The notes below the pieces were generated by a model. The model ran no database searches and was not told the origin of the DNA. It was given only the letters and a program-made list of their open reading frames with translations. Shown piece by piece: positions 1-22,760 of a stretch of DNA of 24,000 bases (position 1 is its first letter; every line of letters begins with the position of its first letter). The stretch is from the NCBI GenBank assembly GCA_963732955.1, contig CAVTBH010000003.1, positions 383,727-407,726 of the forward strand, read 5' to 3'. This stretch comes from an uncultured Alphaproteobacteria bacterium. Lineage in GTDB: Bacteria > Pseudomonadota > Alphaproteobacteria > Rhizobiales > Methyloligellaceae. Position numbers and translations under genes: made by a program.

Positions 1-1
1 C

Positions 2-409
2 TTAGCCCGGATTGCCAGCGAACTTCTGGGTCTCTTCACAGAGCGTGACCCAGTCTTGCGCGGAGTTTGTCCAGATCTCCAAATTGGGCTTCAATCCGGT
101 AACGTCGTCGAGGGTCCCGGCCTTGAGAAACAACACGCCGGGAAAGGCCTTGGCATCGGTGGCAATCGCCGATCCGCATTTGCCGCAGAACATGCGCAGC
201 ACCGGCTGGCCCGAGGTGCCAACATCCTCATAGACCATCGGCTGCCCGGTCATATGCACGCTGTCGCCCGCCACGCCAAGATTTATCGAGAAGGCTGAAC
301 CGGTTGCCTTTTGGCAATGTGAACAGTGACAGATCGCGAGCATTTGCGGCTCGGCATCGGTCTCGTATTTGACGCTGCCACACAAGCAGCTGCCTGAGAG
401 TTTCGACAT
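2..409 (-). CDS. GFA/CENP-V family (glutathione-dependent formaldehyde-activating enzyme-like) Zn-Cys protein
   Basis: Complete 135-aa ORF (stop at 2-4). Cys motifs SCLCGS, CHCSHCQKATG and FCGKCGS are typical of the GFA fold. AGGAG (416-420 on the complement) lies 6 nt upstream of the ATG at 409. Confidence 0.8.
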   Translation of the reverse strand: MSKLSGSCLCGSVKYETDAEPQMLAICHCSHCQKATGSAFSINLGVAGDSVHMTGQPMVYEDVGTSGQPVLRMFCGKCGSAIATDAKAFPGVLFLKAGTLDDVTGLKPNLEIWTNSAQDWVTLCEETQKFAGNPG

Positions 410-463
410 GTCTTACTCCTAACAATCAAGTGTTGCGCCAATTCGTCAAAGGTCCGTGGCTGA

Positions 464-982
464 TCAGTCTTGGTGGTCGTGGTCGTGATCATGGTCCGCG
501 TCGTGGTGGTGCTCGTGGTCCATGTCGGGCATGGCGGCACTCGCCTTGGGCTTGAGCGGCATGAATTCCGCTCCCCATGCCTCTTGACCCGGCATCTTCA
601 CGAACACGACGACGGTGCTGTCCTGGTCGAGCTTATAATCGCCTTTGCCCTTGAAGATGTTGTCGCCCGCCGGCGTGAGCTTGATCGTCGCCACCTCCTT
701 GCCGCTGCCGTCGTGTACCACGGCTTTGCCCTCGCCTCCCGCCGTCGGAACGTTCTCGTTGGCATGGTTTGCCAAATAAACCGTGATCTCGCCCGGTTTT
801 TTGGTCACGAGTTCGATGTGGTAGGGCCCAGCCATGCGTCTCTGGCCACCATGCGGTGCGGGATGGGTGTCGAAATACTCAGCAGTGTGAGCCCAAGCCG
901 GGGCCGGGGCGACCGCTAACAGCGCTAAGCCCATGAGGGGCAACGCCATGCCCGTGAGGGCCGAGATCCACTGTGTCTTCAT
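464..982 (-). CDS. Secreted protein with His/Asp-rich C-terminal tail, putative periplasmic metal-binding protein
   Basis: 172-aa ORF with a GGAGAGGA RBS upstream of the ATG at 982. Sec-type signal peptide ending APAWA, followed by HTAEY (predicted mature N-terminal His). Beta-rich middle part. The tail is MPDMDHEHHHDADHDHDHDHQD. No family recognised. Confidence 0.6.
   Translation of the reverse strand: MKTQWISALTGMALPLMGLALLAVAPAPAWAHTAEYFDTHPAPHGGQRRMAGPYHIELVTKKPGEITVYLANHANENVPTAGGEGKAVVHDGSGKEVATIKLTPAGDNIFKGKGDYKLDQDSTVVVFVKMPGQEAWGAEFMPLKPKASAAMPDMDHEHHHDADHDHDHDHQD
470..525. repeat. Short GTGGTC/GTGATC-type codon repeat encoding the (His-Asp)n tail
   Basis: The plus strand reads gtggtcgtggtcgtgatcatggtccgcgtcgtggtggtgctcgtggtc. 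This is low-complexity coding sequence inside the 464..982 CDS. Confidence 0.6.
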
Positions 983-1039
983 AAGTTTCCTCTCCTTCCT
1001 GTTCGGTGCGCGTCGGGCGCCCTTTCTGCATTGCGTAAC

Positions 1040-3064
1040 TCAGTGCACGTGATCCGCCGCGGGCGGCAGAATTTGCGGTTCATGCTGTAGCTGTGCGAGT
1101 TGGGCCGTCAGGAGTCCGCCGTCGCTCCAGCCGGCACTGTCGTCTCGCGGGATCCAGCGTCCCCGCAGATAGCCGAACCTGTCGACCAGCAGCTCCATGT
1201 GGGGTGGGATCTCGCCACCGCCGAAAAGATCGGGGTTAGCAATGGTCCGCCGGAACTCCTCGTAGCTGCGTCCGATCTCGCTGTCGCCTTCGACCACCGG
1301 AAACGGGATCTGCCGCACCCATTGTGGGTCCGGCGTTGACCCTCCCCAGGGAATGGCAATGACCTCGGCGCCGCTATTCTTTATCGCCTCGTACTCGGAA
1401 CGAATGGCGTCGAGCCGCGCCTTGTCTTCAGGCCAGGTGAAGAACACGAGAAGCACCGTCTGCTTGTTCCGGAAATCCTTGAGAGTGCGGGTCACACCGT
1501 GCTGATCGATGAAGGTAAAGTCTGGGGCGCCCAGATCTTTCGACGGCCGCTCCGGCACCACGCGTGGCGTCAGCGTTCTGCTTTGGTAGCCTCGCGAAAT
1601 AACGTGAATATAATTGACGAGATCCCAGCGATCGTCCTCGGTCAGCCGGCCGGCGAAGGGCGGCATGCCGGCAACCGGAAACCCGGTGCCGATCCAGTTG
1701 TAGAAGTCTCCAACCTGGTGCTGTGCCGTATGAGGCTCGGTCAGGAGGTCGATCGGCTTCTTGGGCAGACTGGCGGCGAGCGGCCCATCGCCTTTGCCCT
1801 GGAGACCGTGGCAGGGGGTGCAGTTGGCCGCAAACAAGCTCGCGCCGCGGGCGATGGAAATGGCGTCGAACGGGACCACGGTGTTTCGGTAGGAATCGAC
1901 GCTGGCTCTGGTCGATATGGCGTACAGCGAAACCCCGATACCGGAGAGAGCCAGCACCACAATCGCGCTCAGCACGGACCGGCGCCAACGAAAGCTTGAG
2001 CGTCTCCAAGCAAAGACGAGAGAGACTGCCGCAGCGAAGAGCCCCGCGCCGATGAGAAGATCGGTGGCTGTGCCGGGCACGCCGAGGTCCAAGGTGCCCG
2101 CAATCGAGAATCGGAACGGATAGGGCCAGTAGGCAATGGTGGCGTGCTTGGCTGGAATCGCACTGGCGCACAAGGTGGCGGCCAATATCAACAGCGCAGC
2201 GAGCGTGAATTCCACCGTCACGCCCCGGCGCAACGGACGCCACGCCGCCGCTTTCGGTGGGTTGCTAACCTCGAGCTGCGGCACCCAGACGAATCGGGCG
2301 TAAGCAGCGATCACCAGGATCGCGCAAAGCAGTAACAGTTTGGTCAGCAGGTATGCCCCGTAGTCCGTCGACACGAGCGCGGCATAGCGGCCGTCCACTT
2401 GCAGATTGCCGACGAGGACACCGGTGATGAGGATCACGATCATGATCGGCAGAGCCATCACCGAGAAGCTGTGAATTGCCTTCACACCCGAGGGTCCGGC
2501 GGCACCATCCGTGCGCCTCAAGGCGCTATAGACCACGGCGAGAAAGGCTGGCAGCCCTCCGAACCAGATGCCGGCCATGAGGATGTGGAGCGCATAGATA
2601 CTGACAGGGAACAGCGGCAACTCCTCCGCGACCGCGTGGCTCGAGAGCGCTGCCGCCATCAGCGCCGTCCCGGCGGCCGTAGCGCAGAGCAGATAACGCC
2701 ACCGGGCGCTTGGCGCCTTGCGGACATAGATCGCGATCGGGAGCAGCAGGAACACCAGGCCCATGCGCGCCGCCCACACCCGTCCCAGCCAAGTGTTCTT
2801 GACAACACCGAGCCACGCCCCGGGCTTCCACGCATTCGCCACAACATCCGTGATCTCCGCCGTCTTGGCGGCGAGCTCGACAAGCATGAGCACGGCAAGC
2901 GCCGCCACCAGCCATGGCAGCGCGCGCTCAAGCCGATCGAGCAACGGATCGTGGAAGGTGGCCTTGTCGTAGCTGGCGACGACGAAAAAAACGCAAGTGC
3001 CAAGCACGATCATGTTGGCGACAAGCTGCAGCCACTTTGCGACAACGCCAGCCACTTCGATCAT
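1040..3064 (-). CDS. copD: CopD-family copper membrane protein fused to a c-type cytochrome domain and a Cys-less AhpC/TSA (peroxiredoxin/thioredoxin-fold)-like domain
   Basis: 674-aa ORF. About 10 hydrophobic helices by eye in the N-terminal 400 aa, placed directly after copC. Haem motif CTPCHG, followed by GMPPF and DRWDLVNYI (class I cytochrome c pattern). The C-terminus APDFTFIDQHGVTRTLKDFRNKQTVLLVFFTWPEDK...GAEVIAIPWGG resembles AhpC/TSA but lacks the catalytic Cys. The ATG at 3064 lies 2 nt after the copC stop (TAGGAATG). Confidence 0.8.
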   Translation of the reverse strand: MIEVAGVVAKWLQLVANMIVLGTCVFFVVASYDKATFHDPLLDRLERALPWLVAALAVLMLVELAAKTAEITDVVANAWKPGAWLGVVKNTWLGRVWAARMGLVFLLLPIAIYVRKAPSARWRYLLCATAAGTALMAAALSSHAVAEELPLFPVSIYALHILMAGIWFGGLPAFLAVVYSALRRTDGAAGPSGVKAIHSFSVMALPIMIVILITGVLVGNLQVDGRYAALVSTDYGAYLLTKLLLLCAILVIAAYARFVWVPQLEVSNPPKAAAWRPLRRGVTVEFTLAALLILAATLCASAIPAKHATIAYWPYPFRFSIAGTLDLGVPGTATDLLIGAGLFAAAVSLVFAWRRSSFRWRRSVLSAIVVLALSGIGVSLYAISTRASVDSYRNTVVPFDAISIARGASLFAANCTPCHGLQGKGDGPLAASLPKKPIDLLTEPHTAQHQVGDFYNWIGTGFPVAGMPPFAGRLTEDDRWDLVNYIHVISRGYQSRTLTPRVVPERPSKDLGAPDFTFIDQHGVTRTLKDFRNKQTVLLVFFTWPEDKARLDAIRSEYEAIKNSGAEVIAIPWGGSTPDPQWVRQIPFPVVEGDSEIGRSYEEFRRTIANPDLFGGGEIPPHMELLVDRFGYLRGRWIPRDDSAGWSDGGLLTAQLAQLQHEPQILPPAADHVH

Positions 3065-3066
3065 TC

Positions 3067-3465
3067 CTATTTCTCCGGTGCGTTCCCTTGCACCGTGAAA
3101 TCGTAGGCGTCGTTGACGACATGGCCATCGACGGACAACACGCGGTACGTGACGGTGTACTTGCCGGGCGCGAGAGCGGGCAGCGGCAGCACGAGCAACT
3201 TCGGATCATCGCTTGCGATCGCCGGCTTGACCTCGGTCACCGGCTTGCCCGAGGCGTCGACCACGGCGAGCGAGGCGTAGTCCCCCTCGATTTCCTCGTC
3301 GAACCAGAGCGCCACCCGCGTCGGTGCAGTCGCGACGTTGGCGCGCTGCGCAGGTTCGGCTTTGATGAGTTGGGCATGGGCATAGGCGTGCGAGGCGAGC
3401 GCCACAAAGAGCACCAGCGCGAGGCTCGCGGCGATCATGTCCGCGATCCGCTTTACAGTTTTCAT
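3067..3465 (-). CDS. copC: CopC-family periplasmic copper-binding protein
   Basis: 132-aa ORF. Signal peptide ends HAYA, and the mature N-terminus HAQLIKAEPA...VALWFDEEIE matches the CopC pattern (N-terminal His, H-x-x-L, P, L-x-F). The C-terminal YRVLSVDGH is typical of CopC. GGAG RBS upstream. Confidence 0.85.
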   Translation of the reverse strand: MKTVKRIADMIAASLALVLFVALASHAYAHAQLIKAEPAQRANVATAPTRVALWFDEEIEGDYASLAVVDASGKPVTEVKPAIASDDPKLLVLPLPALAPGKYTVTYRVLSVDGHVVNDAYDFTVQGNAPEK

Positions 3466-3578
3466 GGTTTCAGCTCCGTTCTCATCACTTCAATACCATT
3501 CTGCTGAAGGTTTCACTCGACAGCCAGCCTGCGGCCCTCAGTACTGAACTCGGTGTGCCGTCAATGCTCTGAGGGTTC

Positions 3579-4559
3579 TTATCGACTGACTGTTCTTTCT
3601 TCGCCACGGCGCTGCCCTAATGGCCCGCGCATCGCAGAGCGGGACTCGTTGCCCGTAAGGCCTTCCGCCGCGGCGGGAGCGACGTCACCACCGGAGACGA
3701 AGAAGTGGACGATCTCCGCCTCCAAGCCCGGCCACTCTCCGTGCCAACGCGAGCCTTCGCAATAGCGCGTCGAACCTCCCGTGGCGCAGGCCTGATAGGC
3801 GACGCATTGTTCACCCGCGGGCAGAGGCGGCTTCGCCAGATCGCAGTTGTTGCACGCCGCCCACCATTTCGCCGCCTGAGCTCCCCAGCCTGGGAAGAGC
3901 ATGTCCCGGCTGCTGTGCATGACCATCACTGGAAACGGGGCGGAGGGGCATTTGAAGGTCTCAAAGTCGGTCGCCGAGAAGCCGGCAGCGCTCGGCGCTA
4001 TGCCGGACAGAAGTCCCCTCGTATCGCCTAGGAGGGCGATGGCCGTCGACACCGTGCCGCCATCAGAATGGCCGGTCGCATATATCCGGTGGCTATCGAT
4101 GCACCACTTGTCCGCGATCTCCGCCGGCAGCTTCGCGAGCTCCTTCACCGTGTCGAGGGTCATCGGACGGTGAGTCGGGTAGCCAACGACGAACCCGTTC
4201 TGCGTCGCCTCGGTGGTGAGGTGGGTCAGAGTTTCATTCTTCGCCGCGCTCAGGCCTCCCGCTGCGTAAACCATCAGCAGGGGATGGGCGAAAGTCGGAT
4301 CGTAATTGCGAGGCGTTCTGACATTGTACCAAATTCCGTCGATCGATTTCTGGTTGTCCGTCGCACCAGCTTCCCCCAACTTCGTCCCCGCTTCGCAAGT
4401 GCCATGGCGGCCAGCGGTGGTGTAGTCGAATTGCGCGATATCCACGCCCTCGACCGGATCGGACTGCGAGCAGCCCGCAAGCGCCCCCGCAATTGCGGTG
4501 CCCAACATCCAAATGGATCGACGCTTATGCGCGCAAGACGATCCCCAACGCCACGGCAT
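3579..4559 (-). CDS. Exported alpha/beta-hydrolase, PHB-depolymerase/LpqC-family esterase lipoprotein
   Basis: 326-aa ORF. N-terminal KRR, a hydrophobic stretch and lipobox LAGC. Nucleophile elbow GHSDGG. Cys-rich C-terminus (CNNC, QCVAYQAC, YCEGSRWHGEWPG) resembles the COG3509/TIGR01840 esterase family. The start lies 6 nt after the stop of the upstream gene. Confidence 0.6.
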   Translation of the reverse strand: MPWRWGSSCAHKRRSIWMLGTAIAGALAGCSQSDPVEGVDIAQFDYTTAGRHGTCEAGTKLGEAGATDNQKSIDGIWYNVRTPRNYDPTFAHPLLMVYAAGGLSAAKNETLTHLTTEATQNGFVVGYPTHRPMTLDTVKELAKLPAEIADKWCIDSHRIYATGHSDGGTVSTAIALLGDTRGLLSGIAPSAAGFSATDFETFKCPSAPFPVMVMHSSRDMLFPGWGAQAAKWWAACNNCDLAKPPLPAGEQCVAYQACATGGSTRYCEGSRWHGEWPGLEAEIVHFFVSGGDVAPAAAEGLTGNESRSAMRGPLGQRRGEERTVSR

Positions 4560-4565
4560 GGCTCT

Positions 4566-5159
4566 TCATTGGGCCTTTCGCTGCGCTGCCGCTGTCCCCT
4601 TGGACAGCGTGGTCGAGTACCAGTAGAAGCCGATCCCGGCCAGGATCACCAAGCCGACGAACATATACGGCCTAAACCTGCTCCAGCCCTTGGCCACGCT
4701 GAAGGGGAATCGCGACACGTACTGTCCGTTGGCGTCACTGGTCGTCACCACTCCGACGAACTTCCCGGCCTCTTTGAAGTCGTGCTCGAAGGTCACGCTG
4801 CCGGTGGGATAGACCTTCGCCGGGAGATGCAGGACCGTGACGGCCTCTATATCGCTCTCGTCTCCGGTATCGCGAATGACCCGTACATCGAGCGGCTGTT
4901 CCCGCAACGGCGGATCGATCGCGTCGAATGCCACAATGGTATCGCCGAGCTCTGGGATGTCCTCACAGAATTCCTTGGTGCCGGTTGCTTCAGGCTGGTA
5001 ACCCGTGAAGTGCATCGCGTAGGGACCGATGCGCAGTTTGCACGTGTCCTGCTCCATGCTGAGGCCGCCATGCGCAAGGGCAAGTCGAGGAACCATGATG
5101 AACAACGCTGCCAAAGCGATCAGCAATGGCAGCGCCAAATTTCGGTATTGTCCGCTCAT
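4566..5159 (-). CDS. pmoD: PmoD/AmoD-like protein: signal peptide, about 140-aa periplasmic domain, C-terminal TM anchor
   Basis: 197-aa ORF immediately downstream of pmoB, the position pmoD occupies in alphaproteobacterial methanotrophs. Signal peptide ends LALA, followed by HGG. There is a Cys then Met-His segment (DTCKLRIGPYAMHF). C-terminal helix FVGLVILAGIGFYWY. GGAG RBS. The assignment rests on architecture and synteny, not on an alignment. Confidence 0.5.
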   Translation of the reverse strand: MSGQYRNLALPLLIALAALFIMVPRLALAHGGLSMEQDTCKLRIGPYAMHFTGYQPEATGTKEFCEDIPELGDTIVAFDAIDPPLREQPLDVRVIRDTGDESDIEAVTVLHLPAKVYPTGSVTFEHDFKEAGKFVGVVTTSDANGQYVSRFPFSVAKGWSRFRPYMFVGLVILAGIGFYWYSTTLSKGTAAAQRKAQ

Positions 5160-5174
5160 CCAACGCTCCTAAAG

Positions 5175-5203
5175 AGCGGGGAACCACGCCGTGGTTCCCC
5201 GCT
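5175..5203 (-). terminator. Intercistronic stem-loop between pmoB and the pmoD-like gene (partial terminator or mRNA-stabilising hairpin)
   Basis: AGCGGGGAACCACG c CGTGGTTCCCCGCT is a 14-nt perfect inverted repeat. On the minus strand it is followed by CTTTAGGAGCG, which is only weakly T-rich and contains the next gene's RBS. Confidence 0.5.
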
Positions 5204-5211
5204 GTCTTTAG

Positions 5212-6486
5212 CTAGTTAACCGAACCCTTCTTGGTGAAGTAAGGGACGATCGGCCCGTAAATGTTGGCGATCTCCCTCTTGCCGTCCGAGTCGAAGAAGA
5301 ACAGCAGCCCGCCAACGCGATTGTCGGGGTCATTCAAGAGGGCCGTCAGACGCTCCGTTTCCCAGGCGGCGTCGGTCAGATCGATATTTACCGTGCGCGT
5401 TTCACCGGGTTGGATCGGCGCGTCGTTGTCGACCTTCAGTCCTGCCGGCGGAAGAAGTTCCTTGGGGAAACTTGGATCTATTTCTGCCACCGCCGCTGGG
5501 ACCGCATAGTTCACGAATCGAAGACCTGCGGTCTCAAACTCGCCGATTTGGATCGGCTTCGTCCCCGTGTTGGTGACCTCTAACTCAAGCTTCATCGACC
5601 GGCCCGGCACGTCATACGTGGCCCGGTCCATTTTTATGGTGACGGTACGAGGTGCTTGCGGCAGCGGATCCACCTTGAACGTACCGCTCTGCAACGGGAC
5701 GGTGTTTGGATAGGCCGCATTCGCCCATTGAACGCCCAGAAATACCGTCAGGATCGTGGCGACGAGGAAAAATGCGCCCCAAAGACGATCCCCGCGGGTG
5801 ATGAGCACGTCCTCGTTGCCTTCCGTTATCACCAGATAGCGGGGGATAAGCATCGGCTTGCGCAGGAACCACAACATATAAACCAGCGCCGCAATGAACC
5901 AGAGCGCATGCCATTTGACCACGGTGCCAAATCCCCAGCTCGTGAGATCCGCGATCTGAGTGCCGTCGAGGGTCGTCGCTGGAAGCCGGAAATCCGACTC
6001 ATTCCCGGTGACGTCGATCCATGCGCCAGGTCCAAGGATGGCCCCCGCCCCACTGATGTTGAGCATGGCATGAACATGGTGCCGGCCGGGCTGACGTGCC
6101 TTGAACACGATCTTGAAATCATAGTCGCGATCGAGCTCTAGCTTGCCCGACTGGATCGCAGGCTGTCCATTGATGTAGCTCGCAACGCGGGCGAACACCG
6201 GTCCCGACGTTCCGCTCCCAAGAAACGCAGTCTCTGGCTTGGGCAGATTGTTCGGCCAATCCGTGAACAGCCTGAATTTGCCTGTGACGGTGAGAAGATC
6301 ATTCACTGCGAGTTTGTTCGTGCTCCACTTCACATCGTAAAAGTGGGCGGTTCGCATGCGCAGGAATGGCTCCTGGTTGCGCTCGCCATGCGCATAAGCA
6401 TCCGTGCCGATGCAACAGCCTAGCGACACCAAGACTCCGAGCCATCCGGCCAATCGCGTCAAGCGGCTTGCGAAGATCCCGATCAT
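5212..6486 (-). CDS. pmoB: Copper membrane monooxygenase subunit B (PmoB/AmoB family)
   Basis: The ORF track runs to 6570. The ATG at 6486 is preceded by GGGAGGAAGGA (about 6494-6504, complement) and gives 424 aa, a typical PmoB length. Signal peptide ends TDAYA, then HGERNQEP (N-terminal His ligand). GRHHVHAM carries the H-x-H Cu ligands. Two TM helices in the middle (FIAALVYMLWFL, LWGAFFLVATILTVFLG). Confidence 0.9.
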   Translation of the reverse strand: MIGIFASRLTRLAGWLGVLVSLGCCIGTDAYAHGERNQEPFLRMRTAHFYDVKWSTNKLAVNDLLTVTGKFRLFTDWPNNLPKPETAFLGSGTSGPVFARVASYINGQPAIQSGKLELDRDYDFKIVFKARQPGRHHVHAMLNISGAGAILGPGAWIDVTGNESDFRLPATTLDGTQIADLTSWGFGTVVKWHALWFIAALVYMLWFLRKPMLIPRYLVITEGNEDVLITRGDRLWGAFFLVATILTVFLGVQWANAAYPNTVPLQSGTFKVDPLPQAPRTVTIKMDRATYDVPGRSMKLELEVTNTGTKPIQIGEFETAGLRFVNYAVPAAVAEIDPSFPKELLPPAGLKVDNDAPIQPGETRTVNIDLTDAAWETERLTALLNDPDNRVGGLLFFFDSDGKREIANIYGPIVPYFTKKGSVN

Positions 6487-6566
6487 AGAGATTTCCTTCC
6501 TCCCACTCATTTTGTTGTGCGAACGCGTCTGTTTTTCAGACGCGTCCGTTGTCCCTCGAAGAGGCT

Positions 6567-7394
6567 TCACACCGGCTGCGTTTCAGCCGCGGCATGACGA
6601 TCTTTCTTGAACCCCATCATGGTCTTGAGCTTGTTGGGGACCCACACCACGCGAGCCAAGAACATGCCGATGTACCACCACAGGAGATACATCAGCGTGC
6701 AGGCGAACCCAGCGAAGAACGAGGCGATCACCGCCGAGTGTCCGCCGAATGTGCGGAGCGTCCCGCGCTCGATTAACCTCGAATATTCAGGCGTCGCCGT
6801 TCTGGTGAAGGCGTAGCCAATGTAGTCCCCGACTGACACCATGCTGTCCATGACTTCCATCGGCAGACGATAGGCTGCCAGCATCGGCCAGTTGCCGGCA
6901 TAGAAGATCAAGCCGAAACCCATCCCACCGAAAATGGCCGTCAGCAGAAAATTTCCGGTGAGAAGCAATATGGTGTCGAGGAGGATGGCTCCGGGGATCA
7001 ACGTCGCCGGCCAGATCAAGGTCATGGGGAAATCAGACCAAAGATGGAAGCCGAAGCCCCTGGCCATCCATTCCCCGATAAGCAGGCATACGATGCCAAA
7101 CGTGGCGCCGATCGGCAGCCTGAATTTCTCCCAGAACACATACTGGAGAGCCGCGGGAAACGTGATCGCCACGATCGGCGTCAGCGTCGGCCACCACTGC
7201 CGGTCCTTCCAGTCGACCCAGAAATCCCAGTCCCCGGCTAGAAGCATGAAATGCAGGTGAAACGCGGACAACACCGCCAGAAAAAGGACAATCGCGACGA
7301 GGATGTCGAACCACCGCGAAAGGGCCGCGCTCCATTTCGACCACGTCACCCCGTAGATTTGCACGGTCTCGGAGTCAGCCAACTTCTGCTGCAT
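6567..7394 (-). CDS. pmoA: Copper membrane monooxygenase subunit A (PmoA/AmoA family), divergent
   Basis: 275-aa ORF with a GGGAGGA RBS. Hallmark stretches are HLHFMLLAGDWDFWVDWKDR, LLIGEW, GNWP, TPEYSRLIERGTLRTFG. It carries an extra basic C-terminal tail of about 25 aa relative to canonical PmoA of roughly 250 aa. Confidence 0.9.
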   Translation of the reverse strand: MQQKLADSETVQIYGVTWSKWSAALSRWFDILVAIVLFLAVLSAFHLHFMLLAGDWDFWVDWKDRQWWPTLTPIVAITFPAALQYVFWEKFRLPIGATFGIVCLLIGEWMARGFGFHLWSDFPMTLIWPATLIPGAILLDTILLLTGNFLLTAIFGGMGFGLIFYAGNWPMLAAYRLPMEVMDSMVSVGDYIGYAFTRTATPEYSRLIERGTLRTFGGHSAVIASFFAGFACTLMYLLWWYIGMFLARVVWVPNKLKTMMGFKKDRHAAAETQPV

Positions 7395-7468
7395 ATTACG
7401 ATCCTCCCGGGAGCTCCGCCGGACAGAAGACCTGTCCGGCGGAGTGAATCTAGTTCTTTTGTTTTAGT

Positions 7469-8284
7469 TTAGACGGCGACGCCCGGCATTTCGGCGTCAG
7501 CGCGCCGGAAACATTCGAGCATGCCCTGCACGATCTGGATGAGCAGCCCACCAAGGGCGAGCACGCTCCAGCCAAGCACGACGAAGCCCCAATGAACCGG
7601 CGCCGAGAACACCTCCTCGATTTGGAAGAACGCGTGCATCCACTCGTTGTAGCCGAGGTTCGGCAGGATCAAGAATGGCCCAAGCACCGCCAGCACAAAC
7701 GGGACGGAGATGTTCTTGGCGAATTTCGGCAGCCTCGTCATCGCATACAGGAATGAGCCGACGCCGAACAACACGTAGAGCGGCATCGCGCCATAAAACA
7801 GCACGATGTGACTGGGCGTGAAGCTGGTGTCGCGAACCACGGTCTGATGCCACGAGGCATCCTGCTCAGCGAAGAAACTTCCGCCGAAATACACGGCGAA
7901 GGCGTAGACCATGATGAACATCACCAGGGTGAAGTAGCGCTTGATCTCCGTGCGCACCGGAAGCTGGTCCAGGTGCTTGTCGCGGGTGAACCAGATGTAC
8001 GACCACAGCGCAACATAGCTGGCCATGATCAACGTCAACTCGGCCCGCATCAGATTCATCCAGTAGGTGTCGAACTCTGGAAGGGTCGAATCGAGGCCAG
8101 CGGTGAATGCAAACATCTGCTGGTACGTGCGGTAGCACACCATCACGACCGCGATACCCAATATCGCGAGCACGGCGGTGCGCAACGAAACAAACCTATT
8201 GGGCGAGTAATCAGCCCTCTTGTATTCAGACCTCGGGGGCGAGCTTTCAATCGCTCCCGTCGCTCGAACAGCTGCCATCGTCAT
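7469..8284 (-). CDS. pmoC: Copper membrane monooxygenase subunit C (PmoC/AmoC family)
   Basis: 271-aa ORF with GGAGGA 6 nt upstream of the ATG. EQDASWHQTVVRDTSFTPSH gives D-x3-H-x12-H, and NEWMHAFFQIEEVFSAPVHWG gives N-x3-H-x13-H. Both match the spacing of the two PmoC metal sites. Confidence 0.9.
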   Translation of the reverse strand: MTMAAVRATGAIESSPPRSEYKRADYSPNRFVSLRTAVLAILGIAVVMVCYRTYQQMFAFTAGLDSTLPEFDTYWMNLMRAELTLIMASYVALWSYIWFTRDKHLDQLPVRTEIKRYFTLVMFIMVYAFAVYFGGSFFAEQDASWHQTVVRDTSFTPSHIVLFYGAMPLYVLFGVGSFLYAMTRLPKFAKNISVPFVLAVLGPFLILPNLGYNEWMHAFFQIEEVFSAPVHWGFVVLGWSVLALGGLLIQIVQGMLECFRRADAEMPGVAV

Positions 8285-8640
8285 TTTTCGTCCTCCATTT
8301 ACGTTCCTGTTGCTTTGCTATTCGGCCGCAGCCCGACCTGACGCCACGGCCGCACGAAACCTTCATTCATCCCCCCGGCACGCTTGGCGCGTGCCGCATA
8401 CCTGTGTGCTCCCCTCGCTTCCTCCCGAACCAACAGCGATCCCGTTGTCCGAAAGAGTCTCCCGGCCAAATCCCTCGTGACGTGGCTTGAGGGCGAGCAC
8501 AGCTGGCCTTTGACTCTTGAGGTATAGACTACAGCGTGCTGTCCGAACCGCCATTGAACTTACGTAGGAGGACGCAGTCCAAGGACTAACAAACACTCAA
8601 TTCATATTTGTATTGGGGCGACAGCGGGCGCTTTGATCTA
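8285..8640 (-). promoter_or_regulatory. Long untranslated leader and probable promoter region of the pmoC-led operon
   Basis: About 650 nt of non-coding DNA separates the ompW stop from pmoC, and long 5' leaders are known for pmoCAB mRNAs. A perfect 8-bp stem-loop sits at 8376-8396 (CGGCACGC ttggc GCGTGCCG). An AT-richer segment lies at 8580-8640. No convincing -35/-10 pair could be fixed by eye. Confidence 0.3.
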
Positions 8641-8933
8641 GGACAGACTTCTTGCGTGATCTCGCTTCAGCGAAGCATTATGTTGCGACGCAGCATAATT
8701 GGTGCGCTGCACTTGCAGTCATCGGTTGACCTGCTTCAGGCCGACTGCAATTTGATGCCTTTGCGGCCTGCGAAAGCCGAGGAGGCTCACACCCTGCCAG
8801 GCCTGATCTTCACGCTGGGGTGGCGCGCATCATTACAACGCCGCGACGTTGCCGCAGCCAAAGCCGGCTGGGCAACGCGATCGCGGCGGGTCAACGGAGA
8901 GAGGAGACGGCGTCTTACCGCCGCGGCTGAGCC

Positions 8934-9728
8934 TCAGAACTTGTAGCCAATACCGGCGCTCAGGATCCACGGATCGAGTTTCAGATTGTCCACGACCAGC
9001 GAGCGTCCAGCCAAGATGCCCTTCCCTCGCCAAGACACGTCCGGCTCCAGGAACATGTATTTGGCGTCGACGTTCAGCTGCCAGTTCCCGCCAATAGCGA
9101 TATCGGCGCCAAACTGCCCGGTGACGCCCCACGAGTCGTCGATCTTCACCGACTTTGCGACCGGCGCCAGGCCAGAGCCGACTTCCGAATCGACGAAGAT
9201 CGCGTAAGTGGGGCCCGCGCCGACATACGGCTTGAACGCGCCCATCGGGATATGGAACTGGAACAAGATGGTTGCGGGGATCGCCCAGGTGCTGGCGACT
9301 TCCCGACCGGTCCCGGTCACGGCGTTGATGGTATCGCCGAGCGCCCCGGTGGCGTCGACCGTATGCTTGGTCGCACAGCAGATCGCTTCGACGGCGAAGT
9401 TATTCGTCAGAAAGTAGGAGAAGTCGAGTTCCGGGATCCACTGGTTCGTTACCGATGCGTCGTGGCCGGGCAAGACGCCGCCACTTAGCGGGAAGAATGG
9501 GCCCGCCGGGTTGATGTAGGCTTTGTCGACATCGCCTTCCATGATCAAGTAGGTGGCACGCGCCCTGACAAGAAAGTGCCCCGCCCAGTCGCTCGAAGCC
9601 ACCGGCGCCGGCGGCGGCTCCAGCGAATCTCCTGCCATCGCAGGTGAGCCAGCACTCAAGATGACGCCCAGTCCCAAGGCGAACCCAATGGCCAGCGCCG
9701 AATGAGACATCTTTTGGCGACGTGTCAT
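8934..9728 (-). CDS. ompW: OmpW/AlkL-family outer-membrane beta-barrel protein
   Basis: The ORF track starts at a TTG at 9737. The ATG at 9728 gives MTRRQKMSHSALAIGFALGLGVILSAGSPAMA as signal peptide. Family-like stretches are FAVEAI, KPYVGAGPTYAIF, WGVTGQFGADI and the C-terminal LSAGIGYKF. Confidence 0.8.
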   Translation of the reverse strand: MTRRQKMSHSALAIGFALGLGVILSAGSPAMAGDSLEPPPAPVASSDWAGHFLVRARATYLIMEGDVDKAYINPAGPFFPLSGGVLPGHDASVTNQWIPELDFSYFLTNNFAVEAICCATKHTVDATGALGDTINAVTGTGREVASTWAIPATILFQFHIPMGAFKPYVGAGPTYAIFVDSEVGSGLAPVAKSVKIDDSWGVTGQFGADIAIGGNWQLNVDAKYMFLEPDVSWRGKGILAGRSLVVDNLKLDPWILSAGIGYKF

Positions 9729-10105
9729 GATTTCCAATCCCCCGTCTTCTCTCGTTTTATTCTTTCATCCCCCAGAATCCCAACAAACGCAGGAGTTGAA
9801 TTTTCATACGAGACGGTAGAACCTCTGTCCCTTCGACCAAAGTCCAAATGCTAAGCATGGCGGACAAGCTCCGGGATTGAATCAAGCGCGATGCGACCGA
9901 TGCCACTGCGCTCCACCACTCTAAGCGCCTGAAAGAGAATGAGTTTTTAAAACAAAAGTTGGAGAAAAATATTCCTCGGCATGGCCAATTCTGCTGTGGC
10001 AGAACAGTCACATAGCTGGCCTAAATTAAACTCAATTCGATTTGGTCGGGCCCCCGCCGAAAGGCGCCCTGCGAGACTGATCTACATCATTTTTGCGGAT
10101 CGGGG

Positions 10106-10149
10106 GGCACAAAGGCCAATAGCCCGCATCCAAGACTTCAACTTAAGCT
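10106..10149 (+). repeat. Copy A of a duplicated upstream element (GGCACAAAGGCCAATA ... GACTTCAACTTAAGCT)
   Basis: The 16-nt core is identical to 10761-10776. A second block, 14 of 16 identical to 10788-10803, follows at nearly the same spacing (12 vs 11 nt). Similarity continues to an RBS-like GTGAAGGAGGG, which is not followed by a start codon. Confidence 0.7.
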
Positions 10150-10270
10150 CGCGCGTGAAGGAGGGACGGAACGCCTTTCTTCCTTGGACGCCAAGCCGCG
10201 ATTGGCCCTGGCAGGCCAAAAACAAACGGCGCGGCCACAATAGCCACAATAAAAGAGAGAAGAGGAAGCG

Positions 10271-10615
10271 ATGAACGAGGATAGACGCAAGCTACTGATC
10301 ACCGGGGGTCTGACGGCGGGAGCGCTCGTGGCGGGTGCGCTGCCTGTGACAAAGGCCGCTGCCGAGGACGCAACGCACATGCATGCCGCTCTTTCGGCTG
10401 ATGGTGACGCGCTCGACGCGGCGGTCGAAAACCGATGCGGAACCTGCCAATTCTGGGGCGGGATGCGCAAGATCTCGGCAGACCATAAGTCGGTGTTCGC
10501 GCAGAGCCTCGGATGGTGCAACAACCCGAAGAGCCCGAACTACAACAAATTGACGAACGCCAATCACGAAATGACTGACGCCGGCGTTTGGACGAGGTGG
10601 CCGGCGCTGGCCTGA
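10271..10615 (+). CDS. Tat-exported small Cys protein, HiPIP-like (only 3 of the 4 canonical Cys)
   Basis: 114-aa ORF with a purine-rich RBS (GAGGAAG). Twin-arginine signal DRRKLLITGG. CGTCQFWGG and GWC resemble the first and last HiPIP cluster-ligand motifs, but the third Cys region is missing. Confidence 0.45.
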   Translation: MNEDRRKLLITGGLTAGALVAGALPVTKAAAEDATHMHAALSADGDALDAAVENRCGTCQFWGGMRKISADHKSVFAQSLGWCNNPKSPNYNKLTNANHEMTDAGVWTRWPALA

Positions 10616-10760
10616 CGTGCAAAACCGTTCCCTAGCGCAAGCGGGATGCGCAGACGCCTCGCTTGTTCCGGCCGGCGCCCGAAGGTGACACTTTCGGGTG
10701 CCGGCTGGAGCGAAGAGCTGGGGAGGGCTGTTCCCGGGCGCATTCGCGATGGTTGGGTTT

Positions 10761-10803
10761 GGCACAAAGGCCAATACCCCCTTCTCCGACTTCGACTTAG
10801 GCT
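10761..10803 (+). repeat. Copy B of the duplicated upstream element, 30 nt upstream of the RBS of the 10833 gene
   Basis: GGCACAAAGGCCAATA ... GACTTCGACTTAGGCT. With its flanking TT it forms the inverted repeat TTGGC-n6-GCCAA. Confidence 0.7.
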
Positions 10804-10832
10804 TGAAGTGTCTATCGTGGGGAGGACAACAA

Positions 10833-11048
10833 ATGGCTCAAGCGTATCAAGGCTCGGCCGTCACCATTTTCTACGATGAGAAGATCTGCCAGCACGCTGG
10901 CAATTGCGTCAAAACCCTGCCGAGCGTGTTCGACGTGTCGCGAACGCCGTGGATTGATCCCGATCGGGCCTCGCCGCAAGAGATCAAAGACGCCATTGCG
11001 AAATGCCCGACCGGTGCCCTCACCTTCAAGCTGACGGGAGATAATTGA
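10833..11048 (+). CDS. Small divergent 4Fe-4S mono-cluster protein (Fer4_19/DUF1271-like)
   Basis: The ORF track starts at 10698, but the ATG at 10833 follows GGGGAGGA. The 71-aa product MAQAYQG...ICQHAGNCVKTLPSVFD...WIDPD...IAKCPTGAL matches the C-x-H-x3-C ... C-P pattern of this family. Confidence 0.65.
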   Translation: MAQAYQGSAVTIFYDEKICQHAGNCVKTLPSVFDVSRTPWIDPDRASPQEIKDAIAKCPTGALTFKLTGDN

Positions 11049-11111
11049 GGGCGCGGCGCGGCGGGGCTGGCTCTGCCGACCGCGCGGGATCGGAATTGAT
11101 CGCCGCCCGCG

Positions 11112-12311
11112 CTAAAGGGCTTTGCGGCCGAAGGCGATGCCGGTCAAGGTCTGGTTGAGGTGCAGTCCGTTGAACTGCTCGCCATACGTATGGAAGCCGA
11201 TGACCTTGTGCTTCTTGTAAAGCCGCTCAAGCTGATGCCGCGACTGGCTGATCTCGGCATCGAGGCGCCGGAATAGGCAATCGAAGCCGAGAATGACGTC
11301 GACATCGTCGAGTTCGTCTTCGAGGAACACGAGCTCCTTGGCGGTCGATTCGACGATGTTGTGCGGGTAAGCCGCGGTGAACACCACCCCCTCGTCGACG
11401 GCGCAGAAGAACAGCAGGCTGCCATCCGCGTTCACTTTGCGGATCGAGCGACAATAATAATTGTCGCCGACCTTCACCGCCAAAGGATAGGAGGCGAAGC
11501 TGAGAGGACCGAGCTGATCCGGGTCGATGCCGATGGCGCTGGCATATTCGCTCGCCGCGGGTTCGGCGTTGAGCTCGGAGACGATGCGGTTTTCGGGGTC
11601 CGCTCGCGTCACCACCAGCTTGACGGGCTTCGGTCTCAGATTGTGAACGCTGAAGGTGCGGAACGGGAAGTCGGTCTTGCCGATGATCAGGACGGCGACC
11701 TTCTTGCCCTTGCTGCCACTGTGGATCAGATCGGTGGATTCGAACACCGCGTCATCGCCCGCAGAGCCGCCGACCAGGGGAATGCTGTTCAGCTCCCAGG
11801 AGATATAGCCGACAACGAACTCCTCCCGATTCGACACACCGTCCGTCAGCAGGATCGCGAAGAGACCATCATTCGTTTCTCTCGAGTTGGTCACGCCGGC
11901 GCGCGCCAGCAGCCTCTTGGTCACTTTCGTAGCGTTCTCGATGGTCGGATTTTCGATCACGTCGGAATAGAGGCGAAAGCCGGTGACCGGAAAGGCGAAG
12001 GCGACGAGGGCCCCTTGCGTCATCCCCTTGGGCGTGATCTCGCCGGCGGTCGAGCAGCCGCTGATCACCACACCAGGAAAAGCATCTTCCAATTCAGCGA
12101 TGAGAGCCTTGGCGTCGTGGCGGCCCTTGGAAAAGAACACGAGCAGATACTGGATCGGCCTTTTCCCGAGAACGCGTTTCACTTCGGCGACGGCTTTTTT
12201 GGTCGAAGTCTCACCGCTCGCCGCCACGCGAATTCCGGTGTTCTGCATCACATTGTCCACGTCCGAATTCCTTGCTCGAGGAAAAGCGACCGGGGCCACC
12301 GAGACTGGCAT
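11112..12311 (-). CDS. FIST-domain (FIST_N + FIST_C) sensory protein
   Basis: 399-aa ORF. The layout and the C-terminal GFHTYGEQ are typical of FIST_C. An alternative start at 12248 (MQNTGIR) is possible, and neither start has a strong RBS. Confidence 0.75.
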   Translation of the reverse strand: MPVSVAPVAFPRARNSDVDNVMQNTGIRVAASGETSTKKAVAEVKRVLGKRPIQYLLVFFSKGRHDAKALIAELEDAFPGVVISGCSTAGEITPKGMTQGALVAFAFPVTGFRLYSDVIENPTIENATKVTKRLLARAGVTNSRETNDGLFAILLTDGVSNREEFVVGYISWELNSIPLVGGSAGDDAVFESTDLIHSGSKGKKVAVLIIGKTDFPFRTFSVHNLRPKPVKLVVTRADPENRIVSELNAEPAASEYASAIGIDPDQLGPLSFASYPLAVKVGDNYYCRSIRKVNADGSLLFFCAVDEGVVFTAAYPHNIVESTAKELVFLEDELDDVDVILGFDCLFRRLDAEISQSRHQLERLYKKHKVIGFHTYGEQFNGLHLNQTLTGIAFGRKAL

Positions 12312-12384: not shown

Positions 12385-13372
12385 TCATTGGATCTCTACC
12401 ACCACCCTGCCCCGTACGTCGCCTGCCATGATGGCCTTCGCCGTGTCGGCAACATCGGCAAGGCCGATGGTCGTGCGCATGGCGTTGAGCTTGTCGCGAT
12501 CGAGATCGCGCGCCAAACGCTGCCACGCCACAAGGCGCCGCGGTCGCGGGCACATGACGCTGTCGATCCCGTACAAGGTGATGCCACGTAAGATGAAGGG
12601 CGCAACCGAGGTGGGGAGATCCATGCCCTGCGCCAACCCGCAAGCCGCAACGGCGCCGCCATAGCTCGTCATGCTGAGCACATTCGCAAGCGTATGCGAG
12701 CCGACCGGGTCGACGCCGGCGATCCAGCGTTCCTTGCCGAGAGGACGCCCGGGCCCGGACAACTCGCTGCGATCGATGATCTCAGCCGCCCCGAGATTTT
12801 CGAGATAGGCCTTCTCGCTGGTGCGGCCGGTGACGGCGATCACATGCCAGCCGAGCTTGGCGAGAATTGCGATCGCCGTGGAGCCGACGCCACCCGCGGC
12901 GCCGGTGACCACCGCGGGGCCCATCGACGGCTGAAGGCCGTGGCCCTCAAGCGCCAGGATACACAACATCGCGGTATAGCCGGCCGTGCCGATGGCCATC
13001 GCCTCGTCGGCATGCAGACCTTCCGGCAGCGGCACGAGCCAATCGCCCTTGACCCGCGCGCGCTCGGCATAACCGCCGAAATGAGTTCTCGCCGAGCCCC
13101 CAGCCGTTGAGGATGACCTGGTCGCCAGGCTTGTAATCCGGGTGGATCGAGGTTTCGACCACGCCAGCGAAATCGATTCCCGGAATCATCGGAAATTTGC
13201 GCACCACGGGGGCCTTGCCGGAGATCGCCAGGCCATCCTTGTAGTTCACGGTCGAATGGGTGACGCGGACGGTGACGTCGCCATCCATCAAGTCGCTATC
13301 GTTCAAACTCTTCAGCGCAAGGGTCTGCGCATCGTCGCTCTTCTCTAACAAAAGTGCCTTGAAATCGCTCAT
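12385..13372 (-). pseudogene. acuI: Frameshifted YhdH/AcuI-family NADPH quinone oxidoreductase / acrylyl-CoA reductase
   Basis: The N-terminal part ([11 protein letters not shown]...[13 protein letters not shown]...[10 protein letters not shown]) and the C-terminal part ([24 protein letters not shown]...GRVVVEIQ) lie in different frames. Removing one base near 13081-13086 restores [28 protein letters not shown], which parallels E. coli Yhd[23 protein letters not shown]. Confidence 0.8.
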
Positions 13373-13657
13373 AACGGTCCTTGCAAGAACGGGCGCCTCT
13401 TTAAGCCTGGCCGGCATGGAGCAGGTCCCCGTCATTTTCGGAAAGGCCCCGGTTTGGGCCGGTTTCGTCGTCGTTGTGGTGCCTTCCCGTTATCGACCCA
13501 ATCGGCCGGTATTTCTTTTGGACTAAAGTATACCCAATCTCTGGGGTGCAGATGCTCGCCCTCCCTGGGAGGCGATGCGATGATGATAACGTTCGGTGAC
13601 CCGCGCGGGCCGGACACGCAACGAATAAGAAGATGCCAACCGGGAGGGTAAGCGCAG

Positions 13658-17803: not shown

Positions 17804-17902
17804 ACCGCAACGTCTTCTCTCACCATGATCGGTTTCTAGCGACTGATTGCGTCAGCCTGCGGGTTGACCGCTAAGGTCAGGCCCACGCACACTGACAGCA
17901 CC

Positions 17903-22167: not shown

Positions 22168-22373
22168 GCGCGGTCCTTTTCAAAGCGAAGGCGGCGCCCC
22201 CCGAAGAGGCGCGGTTCGCAACATGCTGCTGTTCGGTTTTGAATTGGTGTCGTCCGGACCGGGGGCAGGTCCCAAGGACGGCATCTTACCGTGCCCGGTC
22301 GGCGAAGGGAGTAGTTTTACGTTCGACCAAGGTACAAGTTGACCTCTCTCCGGGGGCGTGGCTAGCCTCGTTA

Positions 22374-22760
22374 ATGATTAGCTTGGGGGCATTGCATCGG
22401 CGGCGCCGAAGCGTCGCCAGGATTGCGCTTATCGGCATGGCTTTTTATGCCGTGCTCATCCCCTGGCACACCGTCTCCCAAGCCATCACCCCGCTTCTTG
22501 CCGCCGCGGAGGTCCTTACCGCACCCTGTCATGACCATGGGGCAGCGCCGGAAGGCCAGTCGGGGCCCGGCAAGTCGCGAACCAATTGCCCGATCTGCAA
22601 GGGGTTGGGCACGCTGAATCTCGCCACGGCGGCCCAGGCGTTCCTGGTCATCGCCAATGTCGCCGAGAGCACGCCCCTGCCGCAGGCACCGGACGAAGAT
22701 CTCGTGCCGGGAGAAGACGTTACACCGCAGAGCCGCGGTCCCCCTCTCCTCTCCATCTAG
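22374..22760 (+). CDS. DUF2946-like small membrane-anchored Cys/His protein (putative copper-related)
   Basis: The ATG at 22374 gives about 128 aa. An RRR-rich N-terminus is followed by one hydrophobic helix (IALIGMAFYAVLIPW), then CHDH and CPIC motifs. The family call is from memory of DUF2946 architecture, and the start is uncertain. Confidence 0.45.
   Translation: MISLGALHRRRRSVARIALIGMAFYAVLIPWHTVSQAITPLLAAAEVLTAPCHDHGAAPEGQSGPGKSRTNCPICKGLGTLNLATAAQAFLVIANVAESTPLPQAPDEDLVPGEDVTPQSRGPPLLSI

Follow-up and report, generated by a model that had tools for sequence, protein, structure and literature searches.

The question raised by the locus analysed here is which enzyme its genes encode, and whether the long run of genes on one strand forms a single transcribed 'supra-operon' with an unusual accessory set. 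The locus covers positions 2 to 9728 of a 24,000-nt stretch (the window) of contig CAVTBH010000003.1, from an uncultured alphaproteobacterium, and contains the three subunit genes of a copper membrane monooxygenase (CuMMO) followed by copper-related genes. Our analysis suggested that window 2-8284 likely holds a complete xmoCAB of a hydrocarbon-type clade together with a conserved copper-supply block, laid out as in ammonia-oxidising bacteria (AOB) with an esterase gene added. This reading was drawn from gene content, homology, conserved linkage, intact catalytic and metal-ligand residues and hairpins at the gene junctions, all of which were observed directly.

Genes were called from a six-frame listing of open reading frames (ORFs) and translation of the window, and domains were assigned with Pfam and NCBIfam. 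Related loci were collected by a PmoA profile scan of 185,579 species genomes, by contig look-up with exact proteins, and by a metagenome scan starting from the small secreted 'His-tail' protein of the cluster. About 170 related loci (numbered with the prefix L) were compared, and all were searched with every protein of the window. The features of the locus, in the direction of transcription, are as follows.

8934-9728, minus strand: OmpW-family outer-membrane beta-barrel, 264 aa from MTRRQ, Pfam OmpW E=2.9e-41.
8285-8933, minus strand: spacer 5' of pmoC, 649 nt, aligned among the window, L003, L089 and L090.
7469-8284, minus strand: CuMMO subunit C (xmoC/pmoC-like), 271 aa, Pfam AmoC 1.2e-93.
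7414-7444, minus strand: 13-bp stem-loop in the pmoC-pmoA spacer, minimum free energy (MFE) -29.8 kcal/mol, z=-5.0.
6567-7394, minus strand: CuMMO subunit A (xmoA/pmoA-like), 275 aa, Pfam AMO 8.8e-96.
6521-6547, minus strand: 12-bp stem-loop in the pmoA-pmoB spacer, MFE -27.2, z=-3.2.
5212-6486, minus strand: CuMMO subunit B (xmoB/pmoB-like), 424 aa from MIGIF, Pfam Monooxygenase_B 7.6e-143.
5169-5211, minus strand: stem-loop directly 3' of pmoB, without a U-tract, MFE -31.1, z=-6.3.
4566-5159, minus strand: PmoD/AmoD-family copper protein, 197 aa, PDB 6cpd PmoD E=1.7e-22.
3579-4559, minus strand: serine-esterase lipoprotein, predicted secreted, 326 aa, lipobox L-A-G-C, superfamily of polyhydroxybutyrate (PHB) depolymerases and feruloyl esterases.
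3067-3465, minus strand: CopC periplasmic copper-binding protein, 132 aa, Pfam CopC 1.2e-24.
1040-3064, minus strand: AOB-type CopD, 674 aa, Pfam CopD, Cytochrom_C and AhpC-TSA.
464-982, minus strand: 'His-tail' secreted protein, 172 aa, with the tail DMDHEHHHDADHDHDHDHQD.
2-409, minus strand: GFA/CENP-V-family zinc protein, 135 aa, Pfam GFA 1.5e-33.

The initial annotation had counted eleven co-directional genes from ompW (9728) to the GFA gene (2). All of them indeed lie on the minus strand, and ten are supportable. The eleventh candidate, an ORF of 77 aa with a GTG start at 8363-8596 in the ompW-pmoC spacer, was rejected, as a 1-nt indel disrupts its frame in L003, a locus that is 99% related. 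The gaps given from pmoC to GFA were reproduced exactly (74, 80, 52, 6, 113, 2, 57 and 54 nt), and the hairpin placed in the 52-nt pmoB-pmoD gap was present (-31.1 kcal/mol, z=-6.3). A Shine-Dalgarno-like motif precedes all ten genes, the weakest being that of the esterase. Pfam and NCBIfam models backed GFA, CopD with Cytochrom_C and AhpC-TSA, CopC, Monooxygenase_B, AMO, AmoC and OmpW, and the 424-aa start of subunit B agrees with the calls in L001 and L002.

The three CuMMO subunits are encoded together in C-A-B order, each matching its own Pfam family model. In an alignment of subunit C with its counterpart in ammonia monooxygenase (AMO; 9leg/9pxf), the EQDASWHQ...TPSH and NEWxHAF...SAPxHW motifs are matched, and the D/H/H and N/H/H metal-site motifs of PmoC are conserved. 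In PmoB, the His at the mature N-terminus and an HVH (137-139) fall on the CuB ligands when aligned with M. capsulatus PmoB (3rgb). Among PDB sequences, A and C matched AMO structures best, marginally ahead of particulate methane monooxygenase (pMMO), and B matched pMMO 3rgb best.

The relatives of PmoA were then informative about the clade. The nearest were uncultured Alphaproteobacteria metagenome-assembled genomes (MAGs) of the Microflora Danica project (L003, 99%), and identity was 79% to a 'Hyphomicrobium' MAG (L014), 75% to Azoarcus sp. DD4, 73% to a Rhodocyclales MAG, 66-68% to several species of Bradyrhizobium and 62-68% to many Gammaproteobacteria MAGs. Ethylene- and ethane-oxidising Haliea (ETY-M) and the ET-HIRO strain reached 56-60%. 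Identity to the retrieved methanotroph CuMMO copies, mostly of pxmABC order, was 45-51%, that to Nitrosospira-type AmoA 47-50%, and that to comammox-type AmoA 43%. By these identities, not by a tree, the PmoA groups neither with the PmoA of known methanotrophs nor with AOB AmoA. The 'pmo' naming of the initial annotation is therefore doubtful, given the 45-51% to those mostly pxmABC-order copies and nearest named relatives that are non-methanotrophs. Azoarcus and Bradyrhizobium, the cultured carriers of the clade, are heterotrophs. On the plus strand of the window, 13658-15571 encodes a PrpE/Acs-like short-chain acyl-CoA (propionate/acetate) ligase and 15756-17300 an ExaC-type acetaldehyde dehydrogenase, the latter above its NCBIfam cut-off; the two genes beside the monooxygenase cluster fit C2/C3 alcohol and acid metabolism. 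No methanol dehydrogenase or C1 assimilation genes were found in the 24-kb window, and neither hao nor cycAB in the window or in the 10-kb flanks of relatives. Azoarcus sp. DD4 is a propanotroph, whose genome note only lists 'a copper membrane particulate monooxygenase' (PMC6696649). Because of the PmoA identities, the propanotroph DD4 and the C2/C3 enzymes in the window, its AcuI-type acrylyl-CoA reductase included, we read the enzyme, as far as its sequence tells, as a CuMMO of a hydrocarbon-type proteobacterial clade that has no characterised member, and not as pMMO or AMO proper. Its substrate is probably C2-C4 hydrocarbons (small alkanes) and not methane or ammonia.

Two other identities of the enzyme, and the points that count against our own, were weighed. 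That the genes form a genuine pMMO operon of an unrecognised alphaproteobacterial methanotroph would suit the closest genomes being alphaproteobacterial Microflora Danica MAGs, the divergent putative pmoA that the Microflora Danica survey found in Rhodomicrobium (a 'Rhodomicrobium/HYP' type to which the window PmoA may or may not belong), the pmoCAB-pmoD-copCD arrangement known from alphaproteobacterial methanotrophs, and the presence of a GFA-family gene. However, besides its low identity to the methanotroph copies retrieved and its non-methanotroph named relatives, PmoA scored 302 bits against TIGR03080, below the cut-off of 318, the GFA-family protein falls far short of the true Gfa model (22.6 vs 234 bits), and the window carries enzymes of C2/C3 acids and aldehydes where a methanol dehydrogenase would be looked for, so that a methanotroph operon is very unlikely. 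Automated annotation would instead name the enzyme AMO. The NCBIfam AmoA/B/C_BACT equivalog cut-offs were passed (337 vs 290, 540 vs 336 and 355 vs 319 bits), RefSeq names the Azoarcus DD4 orthologue (L084 7199-8023) 'bacterial ammonia monooxygenase, subunit AmoA', AMO structures were the best PDB sequence matches for A and C (pMMO 3rgb for B), and the accessory block is of AOB type. The AmoA label is nevertheless no evidence for nitrification, because the same NCBIfam models capture the orthologue of the heterotroph Azoarcus DD4. With only 43-50% identity to Nitrosospira-type and comammox AmoA, hao and cycAB absent from the regions searched, and heterotrophic carriers, we regard AMO as extremely improbable. 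The hydrocarbon-type reading has its own difficulties: the passed AMO cut-offs count against it, no member of the clade has a demonstrated substrate, and Azoarcus DD4 also encodes five soluble di-iron monooxygenases, a possible basis of its growth on propane (PMC6696649).

Comparison of gene neighbourhoods gave a positive answer as to conservation of the block. The identical order xmoCAB-pmoD-esterase-copC-copD-His-tail was found in L001, L003, L014/L091, L089, L090, L084 (Azoarcus DD4), L004 and L005, carried by alphaproteobacterial MAGs, by one Rhodocyclales MAG and by Azoarcus sp. DD4, a propanotroph in culture. In Gammaproteobacteria the cluster genes are rearranged yet linked. In L006-L009, xmoCAB-pmoD(-His-tail) is followed by esterase-copC-copD on the opposite strand; in L010, L015-L018, L025 and L026 the order is xmoCAB-esterase-His-tail-pmoD-copC-copD; and in L027, L028, L030 and L033 esterase-copC-copD lies 5' of xmoCAB-pmoD. 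Bradyrhizobium has pmoD-copC-copD, without the esterase and the His-tail gene. In Binatia/delta-like MAGs the esterase sits about 3 kb beyond pmoD, and the genes between the two had no Pfam matches. None of the accessory genes was found in about 35 loci of pxmABC order. Judged by this comparison of sequences, the locus is a real, evolutionarily conserved cluster of CuMMO and copper-accessory genes. Its layout agrees with the extended amo/pmo layout defined in PMC6189053, with pmoD after subunit B, copC and copD later, and here the esterase between.

Two further observations were made in these loci. Betaproteobacterial loci carry a 107-aa EthD-family gene between the esterase and copC (L084 11034-11357; L004 13809-14129; L005 13796-14116), and the same 90%-identity cluster includes a protein recorded for the butane oxidiser Thauera butanivorans. 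The closest genome has a second CuMMO operon, of xmoCAB-pmoD only (L031, sharing contig CAWDMD010000007.1 with L003); its PmoA is 59% identical, and it is placed upstream of the orthologous operon at a distance of about 24.5 kb, a place that in the source of the window would fall just beyond 24000.

PmoD, identified through PDB 6cpd since it has no Pfam model, begins with a signal peptide, carries a C-x8-M-H...C motif and, to judge from its hydrophobic C-terminus, ends in a membrane helix. C40-x8-M49-H50...C65 was invariant in the homologue alignment, and the protein is 54% identical to the second PmoD paralogue of the Nitrosospira-type L086. CopC carries the mature N-terminal His and D-G-H, known as the Cu(II) site of the CopC family, without a Met-rich site, and copC adjoins copD in every arrangement. 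The C-x8-M-H...C motif has been assigned to amoD-type copies within operons (PMC6189053).

CopD proved to be a three-domain protein. Among 22 aligned homologues, C415-x-x-C418-H419, M467, a C-terminal D-H-V-H and several His of the membrane part are invariant, and by these motifs the CxxCH and M467 mark a c-type haem domain with a Met axial ligand. The AlphaFold2 (AF2) model (predicted local distance difference test, pLDDT, 69) has about 10 membrane helices, and its C-terminal domain, at pLDDT 85-90, matched the thioredoxin folds of ResA, DsbE and AhpE. Residues 495-674 contain no Cys, the catalytic position reading F-F-T-W-P-E, in which F542 and P545 are invariant and W544 is kept in at least 90%; a peroxiredoxin or thiol-disulfide oxidoreductase was therefore rejected, the fold fitting and thiol chemistry being excluded. 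A protein search returned hundreds of CopD plus cytochrome c (plus AhpC/TSA-like) proteins of about 673 aa at 46-48% identity and 100% coverage, including proteins named from Nitrosospira and Nitrospiraceae. The homologous copD genes stand in Nitrosospira-type amoE-amoD-copC-copD (L086, L087) and in a comammox-like locus with ccm genes, copC-copD and amoCAB (L088). The cytochrome-c/Prx-like extension that had been taken as unusual is thus the standard CopD of Nitrosospira and comammox Nitrospira (46-48%, full length). In the literature on such operons copCD are treated as plain copper-uptake genes, and discussion of the extra CopD domains or of the following ORF was not found there. One could imagine that the haem-c CopD of AOB, comammox Nitrospira and the hydrocarbon clade is a dedicated CuMMO redox partner, reducing Cu(II) or feeding electrons, with the His-tail protein and the esterase as parts of the same maturation machinery. 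The evidence bearing on this idea (conservation, the invariant CxxCH, M467 and DHVH, tight linkage) neither supports nor excludes a redox role, and we consider the idea as a whole quite unlikely.

The His-tail protein belongs to a family of about 450 representatives with invariant H44, G45, G46, R49, M50, H55, E57 and H73, a near-invariant first mature residue (H32) and a C-terminal tail rich in His and Asp. Its AF2 model (pLDDT 87) is an eight-stranded beta-sandwich, and the best solved fold match was H. pylori CrdA (9ll2, Foldseek E=4e-4). CrdA (PDB 9ll2/9ll4) is likewise a small secreted beta-sandwich with metal-binding His and Met, with template-modelling (TM) scores of 0.56-0.61 on the target, whereas sequence identity is 13-14%, so that the resemblance is one of fold, with no sequence-level relationship shown. 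A putative periplasmic copper-binding or chaperone protein is the natural inference. In L086 and L087, copD is directly followed by a 160-aa ORF with 44% identity to the His-tail protein (E=7e-30), and homologues in Nitrosospira, Nitrosomonadaceae and Azoarcus are labelled 'hypothetical protein' at NCBI; the protein first described as unusual corresponds to the unnamed ORF after copD of Nitrosospira-type amo clusters. Among 55 metagenome homologues with at least 700 bp of upstream sequence, 39 lie directly behind the C-terminus of CopD, and 10 of the 15 with at least 6.4 kb have subunits A/B upstream. The other 16 of the 55 are not preceded by copD (L111, L122, L125, L127, L135, L153, L158, L159 and others). 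When 13 members of the family were scanned against Pfam with E values of up to 1 allowed, nothing but noise was returned. The protein was also considered as a Cys-less PmoD paralogue, both carrying H-G-G...G-P-Y..H, and this was rejected at an hhalign probability of 11.5%.

In the esterase, Ser148 (G-H-S-D-G-G), Asp202, His256 and seven Cys are invariant or kept in at least 90% of 29 homologues, including all those linked to CuMMO genes. The lipobox L-A-G-C corresponds to residues 27-30 of the long form and is kept in most proteobacterial homologues. The PDB sequence relatives are LC-Est1C and esterases of the feruloyl/PHB-depolymerase family. An NCBIfam match was weak (1.6e-9), and scores against hidden Markov models (HMMs) were 37.7 vs a cut-off of 150 and 16.9 vs 108; membership is thus suggested at superfamily level only, and PHB activity is not implied. 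Linkage of the gene to CuMMO genes was seen in 26 loci, which show four or five different arrangements; its place is always inside the copper-accessory block, in most cases immediately 5' of copC, and never between the genes of C, A and B. Across the loci compared, the esterase appears as the sole conserved clade-specific addition to the accessory block.

The claim of an unusual accessory set was borne out for the esterase and for a lineage-specific tail of GFA, hydrolase and kinase genes, and not for the CopD extension or the His-tail protein. By homology, most of the accessory genes are already present, unnamed, in operons of ammonia oxidisers.

We next turned to transcription. A block of about 100 nt in the spacer (about 8548-8648; 287-364 nt before the pmoC ATG) is conserved in L089 and L090 while its flanks diverge, and it is kept in relatives down to 88% PmoA identity. 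The 649-nt spacer is probably a promoter or 5' leader region of xmoCAB, separate from ompW. An Rfam scan of the whole window, this block included, returned no family. All three xmoCAB junctions (pmoC-pmoA, pmoA-pmoB and pmoB-pmoD) bear strong hairpins. The pmoC-pmoA stem-loop was also found in L003, L014 and L004, and that of pmoA-pmoB is conserved only in L003. At the post-pmoB junction, a hairpin of unrelated sequence occurs in L014, L084 (Azoarcus DD4), L004, L005 and L035, and in L004, L005 and L035 it has a U-tract and is a canonical terminator. The post-pmoB hairpin of the window is probably an attenuator or messenger RNA (mRNA) stabiliser that sets a high ratio of xmoCAB to accessory transcripts. 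The gaps of 6 nt (pmoD-esterase) and 2 nt (copC-copD) suggest coupling within each pair. The esterase-copC gap is 113 nt; because of it and of the inverted arrangement in other genomes, esterase-copC-copD may be able to stand alone.

At the two ends of the run, conservation is narrower. OmpW has a signal peptide and a C-terminal Phe (...GYKF), and its exact 264-aa sequence is present in the protein collection. An OmpW-family protein may import alkanes as AlkL does. A homologue 5' of pmoC was found only in L001, L003 and L089 (PmoA identity at least 88%), and ompW is probably its own transcription unit, a neighbour of the cluster. The GFA gene was found only in L001, L003, L014/L091, L089 and L090, all alphaproteobacterial with PmoA identity of at least 79%. 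Neither gene can therefore be counted as a conserved member, as had been proposed. The GFA protein meets the Pfam GFA/CENP-V domain; S-(hydroxymethyl)glutathione synthase, the formaldehyde-activating Gfa proper, was rejected, as the protein fails the TIGR02820/NF003829 cut-off (TIGR02820 22.6 bits vs 234.55). Nor is GFA terminal: its end position is the edge of the window, and in six of six close relatives with sequence it is followed, at no more than about 36 nt, by a co-directional hydrolase and a hybrid histidine kinase of the NahK/ErcS family. The hydrolase is an alpha/beta protein of about 300 aa with H-G-F-P and G-H-D-R-G-G motifs (Asp nucleophile), the closest models being haloalkane dehalogenases. 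Beyond the NahK/ErcS-type kinase, relatives carry a divergent LuxR-type regulator. OmpW upstream and GFA, alpha/beta hydrolase and ErcS-type kinase downstream are, by their distribution, lineage-specific additions.

The extent of the unit can now be weighed. On the supra-operon view, all co-directional genes from ompW to GFA are transcribed together. They share a strand, six of the eight gaps 3' of pmoC are at most 57 nt or bridged by a hairpin free of a U-tract, the pmoD-esterase and copC-copD pairs are nearly contiguous (6 and 2 nt), and the order is retained in six to nine relatives. However, between ompW and pmoC lies the 649-nt spacer with its conserved block, and only the closest relatives have OmpW; a strong hairpin stands at pmoB-pmoD, with a canonical terminator there in L004, L005 and L035; esterase-copC-copD is convergent to xmoCABD in L006-L009 and upstream in L027, L028, L030 and L033; and the gene run continues past GFA. 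Because of the spacer with its conserved block, the post-pmoB hairpin and the inversion of esterase-copCD in some relatives, a single transcript from ompW to GFA is unlikely. What stands of the supra-operon is a conserved functional cluster from pmoC to the His-tail gene, and not one unit from ompW to GFA.

At the other extreme, the esterase, GFA and OmpW could be unrelated neighbours that merely share the strand. GFA and OmpW are indeed limited to close relatives, members of the esterase family are also found outside CuMMO clusters (Nitrospira, L171), and the esterase is missing from those of Bradyrhizobium. This account is largely correct for GFA and OmpW. The linkage of the esterase, in contrast, is kept through four or five gene orders in Alpha-, Beta- and Gammaproteobacteria and Binatia-like MAGs (26 loci), and is presumably under selection because it would be unlikely to outlast such rearrangement otherwise; as an account of all three genes, chance neighbourhood is highly improbable. 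Several results tell against the conserved cluster and the units that we propose. The sigma-70 promoter scan of 1-11200 found none, none in the 8548-8648 block either, terminator-like sites in 1-11200 were not enriched over shuffles, and the units are read from sequence. Some hosts can do without the esterase and the His-tail protein, Bradyrhizobium having neither. The esterase homologues of Ca. Nitrospira kreftii and Nitrospira ST-bin4, at about 53-54% identity, lie away from amo. They sit in the run kdsB-pyrG-kdsA-kdsD-(CDP-alcohol phosphatidyltransferase)-esterase-plsY (L083 10001-10849; L169 and L170 5001-5873), a 3-deoxy-D-manno-octulosonate (KDO)/phospholipid gene run, and a linkage of esterase and amo in comammox Nitrospira was rejected. 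This Nitrospira context weakly points to an envelope-lipid ester as the substrate of the family. Alternatively, the esterase might free copper from a chelate that contains an ester, a role proposed because its gene adjoins copC.

Further genes of the window were noted. A FIST-domain sensor gene, a possible regulator, lies 5' of ompW (11112-12311, minus strand), in L001 and L003 too. A supposed 'Zn alcohol dehydrogenase' near the cluster was rejected, as NCBIfam gave an AcuI/YhdH-type acrylyl-CoA reductase and not an alcohol dehydrogenase. This gene (12385-13435, minus strand) is split into two overlapping frames near 13080-13098, while that of the near-identical L001 is intact at 328 aa; the split reflects either a frameshift or an error in the sequencing of the window. 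On the plus strand, 17864-20685 carries serA (phosphoglycerate dehydrogenase) and serC (phosphoserine transaminase) with a 4-nt overlap, between the aldehyde dehydrogenase and HAD/DJ-1 genes; no link of serA/serC to the monooxygenase cluster was established. At 22239-22760 (plus strand) lies a protein with a weak DUF2946 match that falls slightly short of the Pfam cut-off, and Azoarcus DD4 has a DUF2946 gene and a TonB-dependent receptor directly after the orthologous cluster (L084 14840-17763). DUF2946 may be another link to copper uptake.

Compared with known systems, the betaproteobacterial AOB cluster amoCAB-amoE-amoD-copC-copD (L086, L087, L096, L100) shares the C-A-B order, an AmoD-type PmoD, CopC, the CopD of about 673 aa with cytochrome c and thioredoxin-fold domains (46-48%) and a His-rich ORF of about 160 aa after copD (44%). 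The window differs from it in having one PmoD paralogue where AOB have amoE and amoD, in the inserted esterase, in a PmoA identity of only 47-50%, and in a context of heterotrophic C2/C3 metabolism with no nitrification genes nearby. Azoarcus DD4 (CP022958, about 2.353-2.362 Mb; L084) carries the window's genes from xmoC through to the His-tail gene in unchanged order, with identities of 75% (PmoA), 64.5% (PmoB), 53% (esterase) and about 50% (CopD). It differs in a TodX/FadL-type channel upstream where the window has OmpW, in the EthD-family ORF between esterase and copC, and in DUF2946 and the TonB receptor downstream in place of GFA, hydrolase and kinase. The xmoCABD of Rhodoferax and Polaromonas, with pmoD present, was reportedly described by Rochman et al. 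in 2020 as distinct from both pMMO and AMO and as connected with the oxidation of C2-C4 alkanes. The initial annotation had described pmoD and copCD after pmoCAB as known from alphaproteobacterial methanotrophs, and this agrees with the extended operon of Methylosinus trichosporium OB3b, pmoCAB-pmoD-copC-copD-pCuAC (PMC6189053). In both clusters xmoCAB is followed by pmoD, copC and copD, and the last gene encodes a small putative copper protein of the periplasm. The window has a CrdA-like His/Met protein where OB3b has PCuAC, an esterase in addition, and a PmoD motif of C-x8-M-H (AmoD) against the OB3b type C-x7-M-x-H.

The routes by which copper and electrons reach pMMO and AMO are unsettled, and the isolated enzymes lose most of their activity. 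In the arrangement proposed here, the 649-nt spacer would hold a separate promoter for xmoCAB, and the post-pmoB hairpin would pass only part of the transcripts to the accessory genes. CopC, CopD and the His-tail protein may capture copper and hand it on, either to the enzyme or to PmoD, and the haem domain of CopD possibly reduces the copper before delivery. The esterase, catalytically competent by its residues, would most likely act on an envelope lipid or another periplasmic ester.

These results also point to an annotation hazard, in that the NCBI bacterial AMO 'equivalog' models call a non-nitrifier clade 'ammonia monooxygenase' (window 5212-8284). The main value of the locus would lie in under-described, testable CuMMO accessory proteins common to nitrifiers. 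The 'copD' of nitrifier amo operons appears to be a three-domain haem protein, common to a large CuMMO clade that is neither nitrifying nor methanotrophic; an unnamed His/Met-rich periplasmic protein accompanies CopD from Nitrosospira-type clusters to the hydrocarbon clade; and a catalytically intact esterase lipoprotein appears to have been recruited into the copper block of many hydrocarbon-type clusters. As Azoarcus sp. DD4 is cultured and sequenced and carries the same cluster, all three leads are genetically testable.

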